DNA from: Promethearchaeota archaeon
GTDB lineage: Archaea > Asgardarchaeota > Lokiarchaeia > Sigyniarchaeales > SOKP01
Assembly: GCA_030599585.1 (NCBI GenBank)
Contig: JAUVNS010000001.1
Span: forward strand, 320,001 to 384,000
Direction: 5' to 3'
DNA: 64,000 nt
Positions 19,579-26,476 of this stretch are shown here, one piece after another. The notes below the pieces were generated by a model, which saw nothing but the letters and a program-made list of their open reading frames with translations, did no database searches and was not told the DNA's origin. A program made the position numbers and the translations under genes. Within the stretch, counting starts at the first letter, position 1; each line of letters opens with the position of its first letter.

Positions 19579-19932
19579 TTAAGCGTTTGAAATTGAAATT
19601 AGGTTTCTTTTAAGAAGAGATAAAGACGCTTTCCCATCTAAACCTGCTAAAGCGATTAAAATCCCATTATCAGAGCTAACAATTACTGCGTATCCGTCTT
19701 CTAATTCTATAGTTGCTGTTTTAATGCCTCCCTTACCTGTGGTTTCCCCCAAAGCATTGACATTTTTTATAAGTGTAGCACATGCTTTTGCGATTCCATT
19801 GTGATCCATATCCGTAATAGTTTGTCCTACGATTACTTTTCCCTCCAGATCAGAAGCTATTAAACCCTCTGTTTCAGGCACGACATCAAACAATTCTGCT
19901 AATTTTTTTTCAATAACTTCCTTATCTACCAT
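19579..19932 (-). CDS. Roadblock/LC7 domain protein
   Basis: 117 aa; VPETEGLIASDLEGKVI..ATIELEDGYAVIV..LIALA pattern of the Roadblock/MglB fold. Confidence 0.8.
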   Translation of the reverse strand: MVDKEVIEKKLAELFDVVPETEGLIASDLEGKVIVGQTITDMDHNGIAKACATLIKNVNALGETTGKGGIKTATIELEDGYAVIVSSDNGILIALAGLDGKASLSLLKRNLISISNA

Positions 19933-20142: not shown

Positions 20143-22053
20143 TTAAGCTTCTCTCGGTCCTAAAAACAGATCTACGATTGAAAGCCATTTTTTTTTGGTA
20201 AGGGGATCGTCTATGCTTTCATTTACCATATCTTTCCCTTTATTGAGATTTTCAACTCCTAACTCGAGATTTCCAAGTGTTGTATAGCAAATACCTAATT
20301 TGATGTAAGTTTGGTAAATATACCAATCGTGACTGCCTAAAACCATAGCCTTTACGAATTTTTTAGCCGCTTCCTTATATTCTTCGAAATACATTAAAAT
20401 TTCACCGTAAGTATCATAATAAATTCCTGTCTCAGGTTCAATTTCTACGAGTTTCTGAATTATTTTTATAGCTTCTTCTTTTCTATCTAAAAATTGTAGC
20501 CAATACGCTTTATAATTAAGAAGATCGTGATCTTTTGGATATTTTTGAAGTAAATAGTTAATTATCTCTAACCCGCTTTCAATTTTCTTCATTTTTTTAA
20601 GGACAGAAGCTTTTTTAATTTTGATGTCCTTTTCATTTTCTGGGAAAACTTCTAGAAGATCATCTAATAATAATAAGGATTCGCTGTATTGGTTGAAGTA
20701 AATCAAAATTCTAATTTTTGAGTAGTGTAAATTAATGTTCATTGGATCTGATTCAAGTTCTTTTTCAATTTCTTTAACCTTTTCTTTGTATTGAAGCTCT
20801 AATTTATCAGAACCTTTAATTAGAAGTATATTTGACATATCTTGCCAAATTATTCCTTCTAATTTGTCATAAGACTCCTTTAATTCCTTTTTAGACTCAA
20901 CTTTATACGCTAAATATTTAATATATTCTGGTAGAAACTCTCTTAATGACGCGTTTAATTCTTTAGTAAATAAGAATTCATTACTCCTGTTTACGATATC
21001 ATTTACAATGGATTTCATATCTATAATAGGCATAGTTGGCGTTGGTTTTGAAAAAAGTTTATTCAAATAAGAATTTTTAGCGATTTTATTCTCGGTAATT
21101 ATTCTAAGCATTTTTTCTAGTGTTCTGTCTGATTGAAAGTAGTATTGTTCACCTGAAGGTTGCCTTAACTTAAAAAATCTTAATGGATATATTTTACCCC
21201 CTGAAATCTCATCAATATAATAATCAAGTGTAGTTTTTTTTATTTTATAAAATTTTGAGAAATCTTCAGAGGAAATAAAGTTTGGATAATGATCCGGATG
21301 ATTAATTGAAAGAAATAGTAATATCTTATGAAAAATCTCCACATCTTTTAATAGCGGCTTAACTTTTTCATAATCTAATCTTAGTATATTGTTAAGAAAC
21401 CTAAATTGTATATCCTCATCTTTGATATTATATTTTTCAAAAAATTGAAGGGTTTTTTTTGTGATATCTTCGATCCTTTTACCCTCCTCCTCTAAGATAG
21501 TTTGTCGATCTAAATTGTAATTCTGAAGCATCCTTGAATATTCTGATTTACCTGCTCGCGTAATTACATATTTTCCATCCTCTTTTATTATAAAAGCTTT
21601 TTCGACTAATAGACTCAAATTCTTTGACAATGAAGATTGGTTTATGGATAAAGGATCTTCAAGGAAGTCAGACCTTTTGCAAAAATTATTGTTGTAAACC
21701 ATCCAAAGAATCCAATGAGCGTAAATTCTTCCACTTTTTAATATTATTTTAGGAGGATAATTTAGGTTACGCAACAACTTCTTAGCACTTGAAAGCTCAT
21801 AGAATTCTTTTTTTCCCTTTGATGTAATTCTGTAATGCCCTCTAGTATATTTTTCTACATAACCCTTGCGTTTTAGCGCTTCTAAATGTCTAGATAAAGT
21901 ACCTGGAGGAATTTCAAGTGGTTCTTGACAAAAATCTGCCCATTTACATATCTCATTATTATTCAACATCCAGAGAATTATATGGTCATAATTCGGTTTA
22001 TTCCATTTAGAGGGGCTATGGATCTTATCTGGAGGATAATTAATGCTTCCCAT
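20143..22053 (-). CDS. Tandem winged-helix plus TPR putative transcription regulator
   Basis: Two internal repeats (NYPP..Y.H.ILWM..NN..C...DF...PL.I...LS..L..L...Y.IT..GK) followed by C-terminal TPRs (YYDTYGEILM, YIKLGICY). Confidence 0.8.
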   Translation of the reverse strand: MGSINYPPDKIHSPSKWNKPNYDHIILWMLNNNEICKWADFCQEPLEIPPGTLSRHLEALKRKGYVEKYTRGHYRITSKGKKEFYELSSAKKLLRNLNYPPKIILKSGRIYAHWILWMVYNNNFCKRSDFLEDPLSINQSSLSKNLSLLVEKAFIIKEDGKYVITRAGKSEYSRMLQNYNLDRQTILEEEGKRIEDITKKTLQFFEKYNIKDEDIQFRFLNNILRLDYEKVKPLLKDVEIFHKILLFLSINHPDHYPNFISSEDFSKFYKIKKTTLDYYIDEISGGKIYPLRFFKLRQPSGEQYYFQSDRTLEKMLRIITENKIAKNSYLNKLFSKPTPTMPIIDMKSIVNDIVNRSNEFLFTKELNASLREFLPEYIKYLAYKVESKKELKESYDKLEGIIWQDMSNILLIKGSDKLELQYKEKVKEIEKELESDPMNINLHYSKIRILIYFNQYSESLLLLDDLLEVFPENEKDIKIKKASVLKKMKKIESGLEIINYLLQKYPKDHDLLNYKAYWLQFLDRKEEAIKIIQKLVEIEPETGIYYDTYGEILMYFEEYKEAAKKFVKAMVLGSHDWYIYQTYIKLGICYTTLGNLELGVENLNKGKDMVNESIDDPLTKKKWLSIVDLFLGPREA

Positions 22054-22131
22054 AATTTGAGAGAAATAAATCTTGTTTTTCTGAATTATAGATCAGAATC
22101 TATTCTATTTATATTTATTTCATGAAACTTT

Positions 22132-22222
22132 CATAAAAACTCGAAACTATCGCGAAACTATCGATAACTCAATTATAAATGCAACAATGTCTCAACATTT
22201 AATTAATCATCATAAAGATGAT
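22132..22222 (+). promoter_or_regulatory. Duplicated promoter, copy 1: (CGAAACTATCG)x2, TATA box, ATCATC-N5-GATGAT
   Basis: Perfect 11-bp tandem repeat 22142-22163, TTATAAAT 22173-22180, inverted repeat 22206-22222. 56 of 63 nt identical to 24823-24885. Confidence 0.75.
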
Positions 22223-22260
22223 AAAAACGAAATTTAACAAAAAAGAGTTGATCTAAAAAA

Positions 22261-22656
22261 ATGACTGAAATTAAAAAAATTACTAAGATTGCCTTGCTTT
22301 GGTACGGTGTAGCAGGTATACTTTTTGCGTTTTTTTACTTGGTACTTACCGATTTATATGTAGCTATGACACAATGGCCATTTAACGACCCTGTTATGTT
22401 TTGGAGTTTAGGAGGGACCTTGTTAGTTATTGGGATAGCTTCACTAATGGCATTTTTTAAAAAAGAATGGGAGGAAATAAAGCTATTTTTCCTGTTTTCG
22501 ATGATGTGGTTACTATATTTTATAATCATGAATATCATTACTATAGTACTATTAAGTTTACCCGAGATGGCCCTAATGAGTCAGATAACTAATATAATGC
22601 TCTTAACATTCAATATAGTCCTAGGTACAATCTGCTGGATAAAACAAAAAAGTTAA
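22261..22656 (+). CDS. Small four-TM membrane protein
   Basis: 131 aa with four hydrophobic helices, downstream of promoter copy 1. Confidence 0.75.
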   Translation: MTEIKKITKIALLWYGVAGILFAFFYLVLTDLYVAMTQWPFNDPVMFWSLGGTLLVIGIASLMAFFKKEWEEIKLFFLFSMMWLLYFIIMNIITIVLLSLPEMALMSQITNIMLLTFNIVLGTICWIKQKS

Positions 22657-22797
22657 ATCAATAGAAATATCAAAATCTTAAATTTTTTTTTCTTTTTTAG
22701 TATGTAATTAACTAGTTCTTATAGTTCATCAAACACTAGATTTAAAATTACGATTAGCTTAACTTATCTTAAGGTTATATCCAAATTTGTCATAATT

Positions 22798-24747
22798 ATG
22801 TCTAATCCAAAACTAAACAAATTAACAAGAGCAGAAGAACTTTTTGATGATGGTAAGCTTGACGAAGCTCTTGAACTCTTAAATGATAAAAGCCAATTTG
22901 AAGGGCTCAATTTTGAAAAAAAAAACCATTTTCAATCTCTTAAAGGCTTAATATTACTATATCAGAATAAAAACCTTGAACTTATTGAGTTAGGAGAACT
23001 CATGTTTAAAGAGGGCCAAGCTCTTAAAGAAAATCTCCATAGCTCTGACGGATTATTTTTTAATGCCATGGGATTAGATCTAGAAAAAAGATTTGAGGAA
23101 GCGTTTAATAGGATTGGACAAGCTGAGACTTTATTAGGACTCATTTCTAATGTACCAAAAAAAGTGATAAATCGAAGAGGATTTCGCTTAAATGTACTAA
23201 AAACAATGATTTATATACATATGGGTAAGATAGACATAGCAGAGAAGTGTTTAAAAGAACTCTTACACTCCCAAGATGACCCTAATATTTCATGGGAGCT
23301 AATTTGGGCATACACAAATATGGCATATATTAAATTGATAATGAGAGGAAGGTCTGATCTTGCTTTGGAATACGCTGAGAAAGCGATGAGTCTTGCGAAG
23401 AAAATAAAATTTAACCACTACTGGTTAGGTTATTGTCACATTGGTATGGGGTCTTTACACATGCAAAGATGCGAGTATGAAATGAGTTTTGAGCATCATA
23501 TGAAGAGTTTAGCGTATTTTAAACGGATAAATAACATTTGGTTTATTGCGCATTTATATAACAACCTGGGTAATTTACATTGCATTAAAGGAGAATGTGA
23601 CATCGCTTTGAAATATTTGGAGGAAGCTTTAATACTTTGGGAGCCATATTCGCTAATGAAGGATGCTTGTCTTGATTCTATGATATGGGTATCTCTTGAA
23701 AATGGAGATATTGAACGTGCTCAAAGATATTTTCAACAATTGGAAAATTTGTACAATGAAAATAAAAGTTCTCCTCTCAAAGTGCTTTACAAATTCAATA
23801 AAGCTAGAATATTAAAAAGAAGTTCTCGAATCCGAGATAAAGCTAAAGCTGAAGAATTATTGAAACAGGTCATCGAAAATGAATATCATTTTTTTGAAAT
23901 AAAAATTGCTGCCCATGTCAATCTTTGCGACTTACTACTAGCGGAGTTTCGTGTAAATAATAATAGTGAGGTCCTTGAAGAAGTAAATAGATATATTGAC
24001 AATTTATTATCCATTGCTGAAGCGTCTGGCTCGTACAATATTTTTTGTAATACTTTCATTCTTCAAGCAAAATTAGCCTTAATAAACTTTGATATGAAAG
24101 CAGCTCGTCGATTTTTAACCCAAGCTCAAAAAATTGCAGAATCTCACGGAATTAAGCGATTAGCAATGAAAGTTTCTCAAGAACACGATGAATTAATTAA
24201 ACAATCGAAACTGTGGGAGAATTTAAACGAATCAGAATTGCCTTTATCTGAACGCTGGAAGCTCGCAGGTTTGAATGAACAAATAGAGAATATGGTCAGA
24301 AAACGAATGATTGCAGTTCCTGAGCTTTCTAATGAGGAGCCCGTGCTACTTTTAATTGTATCCGAAGGAGGTGTTCCTTTTTTTTCACATTCTTTTGTAG
24401 AAGATAAATCGTTTAGATCTCACCTCTTTGGGGGTTTTCTAAGCACAATCGATTATTTTATTAAAGAAACATTTTCTGAAGGATTAGACAGAGCAGTTTT
24501 CGGTGAACATACTCTTCTTATGAAATCTGTTCCGCCTTTCTTTATTTCCTATATTTTTAAAGGCGATTCTTATTATGCTCTTCAAAAAGTAGATTATTTC
24601 AAAGATCATTTACAAAAAGAAGAAGATATTTGGCAAAATTTGCTTAAAAATTTTCAAAAAAACACTGCTGTTCAGTTAAAAGATTACCCCTTACTTGAAT
24701 CTCTAATAACAGAGACATTTATCGCCAAAAGGATTGTATTTGGATAA
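22798..24747 (+). CDS. TPR protein with C-terminal longin-like domain
   Basis: TPR motifs (LYNNLGNLH..KGE..ALKYLEEAL); C-terminal LLLIVSEGGVPFFSHSF..HLFGGFLSTIDYF..TLLM..FISYIF. Confidence 0.75.
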   Translation: MSNPKLNKLTRAEELFDDGKLDEALELLNDKSQFEGLNFEKKNHFQSLKGLILLYQNKNLELIELGELMFKEGQALKENLHSSDGLFFNAMGLDLEKRFEEAFNRIGQAETLLGLISNVPKKVINRRGFRLNVLKTMIYIHMGKIDIAEKCLKELLHSQDDPNISWELIWAYTNMAYIKLIMRGRSDLALEYAEKAMSLAKKIKFNHYWLGYCHIGMGSLHMQRCEYEMSFEHHMKSLAYFKRINNIWFIAHLYNNLGNLHCIKGECDIALKYLEEALILWEPYSLMKDACLDSMIWVSLENGDIERAQRYFQQLENLYNENKSSPLKVLYKFNKARILKRSSRIRDKAKAEELLKQVIENEYHFFEIKIAAHVNLCDLLLAEFRVNNNSEVLEEVNRYIDNLLSIAEASGSYNIFCNTFILQAKLALINFDMKAARRFLTQAQKIAESHGIKRLAMKVSQEHDELIKQSKLWENLNESELPLSERWKLAGLNEQIENMVRKRMIAVPELSNEEPVLLLIVSEGGVPFFSHSFVEDKSFRSHLFGGFLSTIDYFIKETFSEGLDRAVFGEHTLLMKSVPPFFISYIFKGDSYYALQKVDYFKDHLQKEEDIWQNLLKNFQKNTAVQLKDYPLLESLITETFIAKRIVFG

Positions 24748-24822
24748 TTTTAACTTTGAGTTTTCTGCTTTTAAATTGATGTTGGAAAATTTAATTTAAC
24801 TCTATACATTTTTCAAAAATTC

Positions 24823-24910
24823 CATAAAAAATCGAAACTATCGTAAAACTATCGATTGCTCAATTATAAATGCAACTATATCTCATCAATCTCTGATCAT
24901 CATAGATGAT
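24823..24910 (+). promoter_or_regulatory. Duplicated promoter, copy 2: CGAAACTATCG-TAAAACTATCG, TATA box, ATCATC-N3-GATGAT
   Basis: Tandem repeat 24833-24854, TTATAAAT 24864-24871, inverted repeat 24896-24910; repeat-to-TATA spacing identical to copy 1. Confidence 0.75.
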
Positions 24911-24950
24911 AAATTTAAAGATAAACCTAAACAAAGAGGTATAATAAAAA

Positions 24951-25583
24951 ATGAAAAAAACAAAAATTTTTCTACTAGCGACTTTGGGAATATGCATGTT
25001 AACCTTTATACCAGCAGCCCTAGGAGCGGCAGAGAATAGACCAATTTCGGCCTTTACTGCCACTAACCCTAATGTAGCAGCATGGTCGGATCCTGAGTCT
25101 GGGTTGACCGTTTTTCCTCATGGATTTTATTTGTTTGGTTTGGATGGCTTAGAAAGCATCGCAGAATGTGATCATCATGGTTCTGTACTCGTGAAAGACT
25201 TGAAAGATGGACGTATTTTGTATAAAGTGAATTTACATGTAGAGGGTGCATCAATGTTTGTTGCCAATGCCACCACAGTGATATTTGCAGGAGAAATGGA
25301 CTATAGTTTCCAAGTAACCATGATTGTTTATGAAGGAGAACTCAGCGATCCTATTCCATATCTTCTTGCCATATGGTTCCCAGCAGCACTAGGAATAGAG
25401 CCTATAGGCGAAGGTACGTTTTCACATATAACGGGGAGTGGTACTGGGACATTTGTTGATGATTATGCAGCAATTAGACTAGGTTTTGCTCCTGGAGCCA
25501 TTGCGAAGCTAAAGATCAATCAAGTTGGTATTTTAAGGTCAGAGCGAGAAATGTGGCCCGTAGAATTAATATTTATACACTAA
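24951..25583 (+). CDS. Secreted protein of unknown function
   Basis: Signal peptide MKKTKIFLLATLGICMLTFIPAALGA, beta-rich mature region, GAGGT RBS. Confidence 0.8.
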   Translation: MKKTKIFLLATLGICMLTFIPAALGAAENRPISAFTATNPNVAAWSDPESGLTVFPHGFYLFGLDGLESIAECDHHGSVLVKDLKDGRILYKVNLHVEGASMFVANATTVIFAGEMDYSFQVTMIVYEGELSDPIPYLLAIWFPAALGIEPIGEGTFSHITGSGTGTFVDDYAAIRLGFAPGAIAKLKINQVGILRSEREMWPVELIFIH

Positions 25584-25706: not shown

Positions 25707-25921
25707 AACTTATAATAGCTTTCGTAAAAATAATCATTTATTAATGGAAAACAGAGTGATCATGATGTTTGGCACATATTTAAAAAATTCCATCAACTGA
25801 AGAAAGACTTTAACATCTAAGAATTGCTGTTAAAATATTCATTTTGCTAAACTTTTATAATATACAATATCTAATTCTACATTATAGTAAAAATATAATA
25901 CGAGAAGCACTAAATTATTTA

Positions 25922-26476
25922 ATGACGAATCCTCAAGAATTTGGATTTAAGATTTCCATAATAGGAGATGGAGGGGTAGGAAAGACATCCTTAATTAAAA
26001 AATTCACTAAAGGCACTTTCGAAAAAGATTACAACCAGACTATCGGTGCCCAATTTACAATATATGATATGGAAATTGATGGGGATTTAATTAATTTAAT
26101 ATTCTGGGATATTGCTGGACAAGATGATTTTAAATTTTTGCATCCTTTATTTTACAGGGAAAGTAGGGGGTGTATAATTGTTTTTAGCCTTGAAGAAAAT
26201 GATTTAGGTGAAGAAAGTTTTAACCATATAGAAAATTGGCATAACGAACTCAAGAAGTATTGTAGCGATATTCCCGTGGTTCTATTTGCTAATAAAGTTG
26301 ATCTAATAGAGGAAGCCAATTTAATCAAAACGAACATTCAAGAGGTTATAAAGGAAAGAAATTTTCTCGGATATTTCCTAACATCAGCAAAAATGGGAAA
26401 AGGAGTTCATGAGGCTTTCAAAGCGATCATTGAAAAACTATATTATAAGTATAAAGATTTATCTTCCGAATTATAA
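25922..26476 (+). CDS. Rab/Ras-like small GTPase
   Basis: G1 GDGGVGKTS, G2 TIGAQF, G3 WDIAGQ, G4 NKVD, G5 TSAK; no C-terminal prenylation Cys. ATG 25922 preferred over TTG 25844. Confidence 0.92.
   Translation: MTNPQEFGFKISIIGDGGVGKTSLIKKFTKGTFEKDYNQTIGAQFTIYDMEIDGDLINLIFWDIAGQDDFKFLHPLFYRESRGCIIVFSLEENDLGEESFNHIENWHNELKKYCSDIPVVLFANKVDLIEEANLIKTNIQEVIKERNFLGYFLTSAKMGKGVHEAFKAIIEKLYYKYKDLSSEL

Follow-up and report, generated by a model that had tools for sequence, protein, structure and literature searches.

A conserved promoter-plus-leader module linked to genes for tandem-winged-helix/tetratricopeptide repeat proteins, putative regulators of envelope genes in Lokiarchaeia

The window analysed here is a 64,000-nucleotide (nt) stretch of a Lokiarchaeial genome (contig JAUVNS010000001.1, positions 320,001 to 384,000); all plain coordinates refer to it, and G000 denotes the genome to which it belongs. 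Within the window, a gene for a putative regulator with tandem winged helix-turn-helix (wHTH) domains and tetratricopeptide repeats (TPRs) stands back to back with a gene for a protein with four transmembrane (TM) spans, and a gene for a secreted protein lies further along the strand of the latter (Table 1). As the initial annotation of this stretch had proposed, these two envelope genes share an upstream element: copy 1 (22132-22194) and copy 2 (24823-24885) are identical at 56 of 63 nt (BLAST E 7e-13), and no match was found between the four-TM protein and the 210-residue secreted protein. The placement of copy 1 in the divergent promoter region of the regulator gene was likewise correct, the spacer there being 207 bp long. 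All four occurrences of the exact 9-mer AAACTATCG in the window are inside the two copies, and one-mismatch matches to it numbered 34, against 21 expected. The shared similarity extends beyond the 63 nt to include an inverted repeat in the leader on the 3' side and a further unit, U0, on the 5' side, giving a module of ~150 nt. A third copy is present in the genome on another contig (G000:C17:20562-20669), 5' of a short secreted-protein open reading frame (ORF) near the contig end.

An alignment of 47 copies of the module showed conserved blocks alternating with free columns. The blocks follow one another in the order U0 (AGAACTTCCAT), 8 free nt, U1 and U2 (CGGAACTATCA / TGGAACTATCG, with an 11-bp period), GAAGCTCAA, the predicted TATA box TTATAAAT, ATCTCAA, a stem TCATC/GATGA with a free loop of 3 to 7 nt, an A-rich stretch, AAAGAGTTGA (part of a putative Shine-Dalgarno-like [SD-like] box), and the ATG. 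The sequence AATTATAAAT, which covers the spacer/TATA region, is nearly invariant over the 47 copies. In both window copies, U1 and U2 form the direct repeat initially described, and U2 ends 9 nt 5' of TTATAAAT in these and in nearly all of the aligned copies, without overlap with the TFB-recognition element (BRE) or the TATA box. The tandem arrangement of U1 and U2 at an 11-bp period therefore places them on the same face of the helix. U0 of copy 1 starts 19 nt 5' of the G of U1, i.e., 18 nt 5' of the annotated first base of U1 (22142). Divergent copies carry an extra block, TCTATTTATA, 10 nt from U0 and conserved across genomes, which is likely the regulator's TATA box on the opposite strand. 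Internal copies retain remnants of this regulator-side block; it was thus the entire spacer that was duplicated, and the copies have been maintained since. Only 17 tRNAs were available for deriving a BRE/TATA consensus from upstream regions in this genome, and these regions yielded no alignable signal; BRE strength therefore could not be judged.

Table 1. Features of the regulator locus in the window (aa, amino acids)
Feature	Position	Strand	Description
Regulator gene, 636 aa	20143-22053	-	wHTH1 ~aa 14-93; wHTH2 ~aa 101-181; possible third winged-helix-like domain ~aa 213-307; long helices 311-412; TPRs 415-631
Putative TATA box of the regulator's own promoter	22105-22113	-	TATAAATAG; 10 nt from U0, ~52 nt 5' of the regulator ATG; predicted promoter function
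Copy 1, distal unit U0	22124-22134	+	GAAACTTTCAT; genus consensus AGAACTTCCAT; conserved columns in the 47-sequence alignment
Copy 1, repeats U1 and U2	22142-22152, 22153-22163	+	CGAAACTATCG twice, in tandem at 11 bp; type I; among the top information columns
Copy 1, BRE-like spacer and TATA box	22164-22180	+	9 nt ATAACTCAA, then TTATAAAT at 22173-22180; BRE/TATA role predicted from archaeal promoter rules
Copy 1, leader stem-loop	22206-22222	+	ATCATC-ATAAA-GATGAT; ~+5 to +22 relative to the predicted start site (~22202)
Copy 1, SD-like box	22245-22253	+	GAGTTGATC, 8 nt 5' of the ATG; AAAGAGTTGA kept in most copies; putative function
Target gene 1, 131-aa four-TM protein (family F1)	22261-22656	+	ORF with four hydrophobic spans; orthologues behind the module in 9 other loci
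Cluster member, 649-aa TPR_MalT-type protein	22798-24747	+	Pfam TPR_MalT, E 1e-14; between the two module copies, without its own copy; kept in the cluster in other genomes
Copy 2, upstream part	24815-24871	+	U0 24815-24825; U1 CGAAACTATCG 24833-24843; U2 TAAAACTATCG 24844-24854; 9-nt spacer; TTATAAAT 24864-24871; R1 score 93.9 bits
Copy 2, stem-loop	24896-24910	+	ATCATC-ATA-GATGAT; loop of 3 nt
Target gene 2, 210-aa secreted protein (family F2)	24951-25583	+	ORF with signal-peptide-like N-terminus and motif RPI..(W/F)...WxDPxSGL; homologues behind the module in 5 other loci
Cluster member, Ras/Rab-like small GTPase	25844-26476	+	Probable ATG 25922, 184 aa; Pfam Ras, E 1e-42

The distribution of the module was analysed in a sample of 42 genomes of the genus, among which related genomes are not independent, so that the counts describe a pattern and not a probability. 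Orthologous loci carry the module sequence in the divergent spacer. A strict pattern search returned 16 matches in 11 of the 42 genomes and none in reversed controls, and a covariance model built from 20 copies returned 57 matches in 24 genomes. The co-occurrence with dual-wHTH-TPR genes that the initial annotation had anticipated was pronounced: among close regulators (at least 54% identical), 32 of 37 have a divergent module, with a gap of 59 to 75 nt between the module and the regulator start codon in 30 of these 32, against 0 of 32 paralogs that are less than 54% identical. Most copies (43 of 57) lie within 3.7 kb of a close regulator. The five module-less close regulators comprise one in genome G010 that is cut at the contig start and four that belong to other clades by the tree described below, despite 55-58% identity. 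Fourteen copies have no regulator on the same contig; six of them are strong matches on short contigs or contig ends, including one in G053, where a regulator is present but truncated by the contig edge, and eight are weak matches. Counted by genome, 22 of the 24 with a module have a close regulator, G053 has the truncated one, and none was detected in G055, while the 18 module-less genomes are without a clade I or II regulator except for the contig-truncated case of G010. The module itself has ~80% column identity, versus 57-84% identity among the flanking regulators. This distribution supports the view that the element is a cis-regulatory module, conserved and associated with this family of regulators. 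At G011:C24:25045-29642 and G013:C40:39643-43075, on contigs with no clade I or II regulator, the module model also matched weakly (E 2e-4 to 5e-3) at pairs of sites 3 to 4.5 kb apart, possibly diverged modules that belong to another cluster of paralogs.

A maximum-likelihood tree of 34 regulators contained clade I, which includes the window protein; clade II, a second paralog that often shares a cluster with the first; clade III, the sister of clade II; and more distant clades. The type of repeat follows these clades. U1 and U2 read GRAACTATCG (type I) in clade I divergent promoters and GGAATTTYC and GGAATTRYCG (type II) in clade II promoters, and U0, AACTTCCA, is unchanged in the elements of both; internal copies are of type I or close to type II. 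Clade III has GGGACTTCCAT-AATACTATTGA, 7 nt 5' of a TATA box, and the gene behind it encodes a four-TM protein paralog. In more distant paralog clades the layout of two 11-bp repeats ~9 nt 5' of a TATA box is retained with other unit sequences, such as AAGACTCCACA-TGGACTTCATC 5' of CTATATATGC at G000:C21. Because these paralog motifs were picked out visually in clade alignments, they are less certain; a generic scan for 11-bp self-similarity in paralog upstream regions was too noisy in this AT-rich DNA for a statistic. Two longer paralogs of 1,011 and 825 residues (G000:C22:129600-129918 and G000:C21:259550-259874; loci L047 and L046) have other upstream repeat or palindrome motifs, one being CGAAGTT-CGAAGTT-CG-TTCGAACTTC and the other CGAAACTT-N5-AAGTTCG, and the motifs suggest further specificities in the family.

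The first winged helix appears to be the specificity determinant. Among the paralog clades, wHTH1 is 40-60% identical versus 62-73% for wHTH2, and the recognition helix of wHTH2, INQSSLSKNL, is almost invariant. One natural chimera is the regulator at G042:C78:25231-27126 (locus L075), in which the switch between clades falls near residue 95-100. Over residues 1-95 it shares 84% identity with clade II against 61% with clade I; over residues 96-195 the relation is reversed, at 97% with clade I against 72% with clade II. The divergent promoter of this chimera carries type II repeats, the type of its wHTH1 and of that domain only, which is the reason for assigning specificity to wHTH1.

The description of the regulator as a protein with tandem winged helices and TPRs was upheld by several lines of evidence. 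Residues 1-95 and 96-190 are 40% identical (E 4e-14), marking an internal duplication. Pfam matches included HTH_45 (32.3 bits, cut-off 25.5), HTH_34 (30.3 bits, cut-off 27), HTH_5 (23.6 bits, cut-off 22), and TPR families; HVO_A0261_N (PF25213, gathering threshold 35 bits) scored 33.1 with the full-length protein and 37.4 with the first 200 residues, the match spanning only residues 131-173. An AlphaFold model (AF2; alignments of 26 to 28 rows) with a predicted local distance difference test (pLDDT) score of 80-81 contained two winged helices, a helix, a helix-helix-helix-hairpin unit, long helices, and TPRs; with a predicted template modelling (pTM) score of 0.38-0.43, how the winged helices are oriented to one another is not confidently predicted, and no head-to-tail geometry is drawn from it. 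A linker of ~20 residues, of low model confidence, lies between the winged-helix domains. In VIA-align comparisons, residues 14-93 and 101-181 each superposed on DNA-binding winged helices of MarR, PadR, and BldR (Z 9-10.4, root mean square deviation 1.6-2.0 A, ~70-78 residues). The third unit, residues 213-307, had one winged-helix match (Z 8.9) and is tentatively a winged helix in the model. By profile and fold, the regulator belongs to the MarR/PadR/ArsR-like winged-helix superfamily, and the adjacent repeats together with the co-variation suggest sequence-specific DNA binding.

The C-terminal part of the same chain is a TPR array. TPR profiles matched over residues 415-616 (7rqf, E 7e-12; MamA; APC7), AF2 predicts helical repeats at 415-631, and the top Foldseek matches of the full model were TPR proteins only. 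Foldseek with the N-terminal model gave no match at E <= 0.001, and weaker rows of multi-winged-helix proteins (RPC62, SarS, and TFIIIC) were not used as evidence; residues 192-418 matched no Pfam family at E up to 5. Homologues at E <= 1e-10 numbered more than 1,100, all from Loki- or Promethearchaeota metagenomes; each genome has several paralogs, and the entries either lack a name or are labelled TPR proteins. The names on homologues, together with the neighbouring genes for a Ras-family GTPase and a Roadblock protein, point to Lokiarchaeia/Promethearchaeota as the origin of the window.

Transcripts from the module would start with a conserved stem-loop of 5 to 6 bp, which might act as a second control or stability element. 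The stem was the minimum-energy structure in four of five predicted leaders tested with RNAfold. In an alignment of 52 copies, 94% of the stem cells are paired, four of the six stem pairs show double-sided changes (11 cells), eight stem cells hold G.U when read on the sense strand, and the loop varies; none of 500 shuffles attained the observed values. The stem alignment was fitted to the model, and the covariation statistics therefore lean towards structure. An Rfam scan of 21900-25100 at E up to 1 returned no known RNA family. The variable loop length and the G.U cells favour an RNA hairpin over a protein-bound DNA palindrome. It is possible, if less likely, that the inverted repeat at +5 to +22 is instead a DNA palindrome at which a second, dimeric repressor sits on the start site: the stem sequence is itself strongly conserved, beyond pairing; changes on both sides are also expected of a symmetric protein site; and archaeal repressor sites typically lie just downstream of the start site. 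Such a palindrome would nevertheless have a spacer varying from 3 to ~7 nt with free sequence, the eight G.U cells would be A.C mismatches in a symmetric DNA reading, and the minimum-energy fold of the leaders is on the side of the hairpin.

Four mutually dissimilar protein families, plus singletons, are encoded behind the module across loci: F1, four-TM proteins; F2, secreted proteins of 210-250 residues; F3, secreted proteins of ~200-234 residues; and F4, secreted proteins of 167-189 residues. At G011:C48, four module copies lie between two regulator paralogs. Because the module fronts non-homologous TM and secreted families, its copies, judged by their genomic context, behave as a regulon and not as the product of gene duplication. 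For the four-TM protein, the sole Pfam match at E up to 5 was to 7TMR-DISM, below threshold; the 210-residue secreted protein matched nothing in Pfam at E up to 5, and only unnamed clusters at or below 0.85 in the protein Atlas. The ORF behind the third copy (G000:C17:20562-21007; locus L028:1479-1924) encodes 96 residues with a signal peptide, homologous to the N-terminal part of the 200- to 234-residue F3 proteins and stopping early; with the contig end 266 nt further on, gene truncation, a pseudogene, or an assembly edge could each account for the short ORF. The cluster also holds other conserved genes. The 649-residue TPR protein, whose C-terminal ~170 residues matched no Pfam family at E up to 5, or 563-residue TPR paralogs are present in every related cluster. 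The Rab-like GTPase gene closes the cluster in most related genomes, usually after the last module-driven secreted-protein gene, and a gene for a Roadblock/LC7 protein (19579-19932, minus strand) flanks the regulon on the opposite side.

The observed conservation, linkage, co-variation, and domain folds make it probable that the duplicated sequence comprises an entire regulated unit of promoter and leader, through which one clade of tandem-winged-helix/TPR proteins in Lokiarchaeia would control a few cell-envelope genes, the regulator binding the units and most likely activating. In the proposed mechanism, the regulator, encoded back to back with one copy, would bind U0, U1, and U2 through its N-terminal winged helices, with wHTH1 carrying the binding specificity. 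The end of U2 adjoins the BRE position, and a regulator bound there would help TFB and TBP to load, resulting in activation from the predicted start site. U0, 10 nt from the regulator's own opposite-strand TATA box, may provide autoregulation, and the TPR half would be the likely input or partner-binding part through which a signal might act. It is plausible, on the model, that one chain places two winged helices on the two 11-bp repeats; alternatives would be two protomers, each placing wHTH1 on U1 or U2, or three winged-helix domains on three units.

Several points weigh against this interpretation. The BRE-like hexamer and TATA box look competent alone, so that dependence on an activator is not evident from the sequence. 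The promoter and the regulator 5' end are contiguous, and both the clade co-variation and the G042 chimera could reflect shared descent or a single recombination tract. The one-to-one reading of two 11-bp repeats by two winged helices, put forward in the initial annotation, fits poorly: U1 and U2 change together while the wHTH2 recognition helix hardly changes, which argues against one domain per repeat; the chimera keeps the repeat type of its wHTH1; and three units stand against two confident winged helices. In addition, a type I internal copy occurs at G002:C82:30772-30879 (locus L036), but only a clade II regulator was detected in G002. Because this copy is 86 nt from the contig end and still has a regulator-side TATA remnant, the clade I regulator of G002 may be unassembled.

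The sign of regulation could be the reverse of that proposed. The same protein and sites might serve mainly repression and autorepression, hindering TFB/TBP or RNA polymerase at intrinsically strong promoters that a TPR-sensed signal would release. The TATA box comes close to consensus, and five of the six positions in the spacer GCTCAA agree with the RNWAAW BRE rule; the divergent layout, in which one unit lies 10 nt from the TATA box of the regulator gene itself, is typical of autoregulation; and MarR/PadR-type relatives are mostly repressors. All three units, however, are upstream of the BRE/TATA, and none overlaps the TATA box or start site. In archaeal systems that have been characterised (SurR, TrmBL1, EarA, and Ptr2; for EarA, PMC5512572), sites so placed are associated with activation, which is why activation is favoured here and a predominantly repressing role is considered unlikely.

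A different factor, encoded elsewhere, might read the repeats, the wHTH-TPR gene being a regulon member or travelling neighbour. Adjacency does not alone prove a cognate pair, and the TPR proteins and Rab-like GTPase show that further conserved genes share the cluster. This is nevertheless improbable, given that no other DNA-binding gene is conserved in the clusters, the phyletic match of the module with clade I/II-type regulators is near one-to-one, the repeat type follows the regulator clade, and paralog clades have their own repeat variants at the same position. Equally slim are the chances of an extended scheme, a self-contained Asgard signalling circuit in which three winged helices would read U0, U1, and U2 and the TPR half would sense either the product or state of the controlled envelope proteins, in the manner of the RRNPP family discussed below, or the nucleotide state of the co-clustered pair of Rab-like GTPase and TPR protein; if true, it would couple a eukaryote-like small-GTPase module directly to transcription.

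The initial annotation had held that evenly spread conservation would indicate simple local duplication. Conservation is indeed spread over the ~150 nt (U0, BRE/TATA, stem-loop, and SD-like box) and not confined to the repeats, but simple duplication does not follow and was rejected as contradicted by conservation across genomes. A neutral relic of recent local duplication or gene conversion of promoter DNA is very improbable: within this genome identity extends over the whole ~100 nt, and the promoter remnants in internal copies mean that the whole intergenic region was duplicated, yet the module is held in 24 genomes with flanking proteins at 57-84% identity, which excludes near-identical strains, its loop and spacer columns vary freely while the units, TATA box, and stem are held, the stem shows compensatory changes, and the copies front non-homologous genes. 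A mobile element was also rejected, as no copy has terminal repeats and all occur within regulator clusters at fixed promoter positions.

We know of no specific Asgard archaeal transcription factor with an experimentally defined binding site, and literature searches found none. The locus offers a concrete, testable pair of regulator and target: a soluble N-terminal DNA-binding fragment would span ~200-310 residues, the site is 40 bp long and occurs naturally in type I and type II forms, and a natural domain chimera is available. With more than 1,100 homologues and several paralogs per genome, each apparently with its own repeat variant, this family may rank among the major regulators of Lokiarchaeia. 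A published analysis noted that Asgard GTPase genes do not as a rule share operons with their putative regulators and suggested control by transcription factors (PMC10933270); the regulon clusters, which hold Rab-like GTPases and TPR proteins, are a place to test such control.

No description of the family or the element was found in literature searches, in agreement with the initial annotation. A one-component regulator with upstream repeats is a known kind of system; the tandem-winged-helix/TPR architecture and the portable promoter-plus-hairpin module are uncharacterised. The RRNPP regulators of Firmicutes (PlcR, NprR, Rgg, and PrgX) are one-component proteins that bind DNA through their N-terminal domain and sense through C-terminal TPRs, and their genes stand beside genes for exported products; the Loki regulator resembles them in this layout, its TPRs being a putative sensor. 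RRNPP proteins, however, have one XRE-type HTH, whereas the Loki regulator matches only winged-helix Pfam families, in duplicate, and is therefore not an RRNPP member. The RRNPP neighbour is a short pro-peptide gene, whereas the Loki neighbours behind the module encode membrane or secreted proteins of 131-250 residues; short peptide ORFs were not examined in detail, and no peptide signal is indicated.

In the pho boxes of PhoB/OmpR and the sites of the actinomycete SARP/AfsR proteins, winged helices read 11-bp direct repeats abutting a core promoter element and activate, and AfsR also has C-terminal TPRs. The Loki system shares the 11-bp-phased direct repeats next to the core promoter with both groups, and the combination of winged helix and C-terminal TPRs with AfsR. 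Unlike the Loki system, these proteins act at bacterial sigma-70 promoters, and their two reading domains come from two protomers and not from one chain. The SARP/AfsR winged helix is, moreover, of the OmpR type (Trans_reg_C) and is accompanied by BTAD and, in AfsR, NB-ARC; no Pfam match to Trans_reg_C, BTAD, or NB-ARC was found in the regulator at E up to 5, and it is thus not a SARP/AfsR member. SarS and SarU of Staphylococcus (PDB 1p4x) likewise have two homologous MarR-like winged helices in one polypeptide, and 1p4x was a weak Foldseek match to the N-terminal model (E 5e-3) that was not used as evidence. Unlike the Loki regulator, SarS is bacterial and without a TPR part, and its two domains are arranged like a symmetric dimer; the resemblance stops at the fold and does not extend to sequence.

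The promoter layout also resembles that of the archaeal upstream-site activators, represented at activated promoters by Ptr2, TFB-RF1, and SurR/TrmBL1. EarA, at the fla promoter of Methanococcus maripaludis, is an archaeal activator with sites directly upstream of the BRE/TATA (PMC5512572). Unlike these proteins, the Loki regulator has two or three tandem winged helices and TPRs in one 636-residue chain, and its site lies inside a larger portable module with a fixed leader hairpin, one copy of which is always divergent to the regulator gene. What it shares with them is the presence of repeated short sites just 5' of the BRE/TATA, a one-component regulator, and the presumed recruitment of TBP/TFB.

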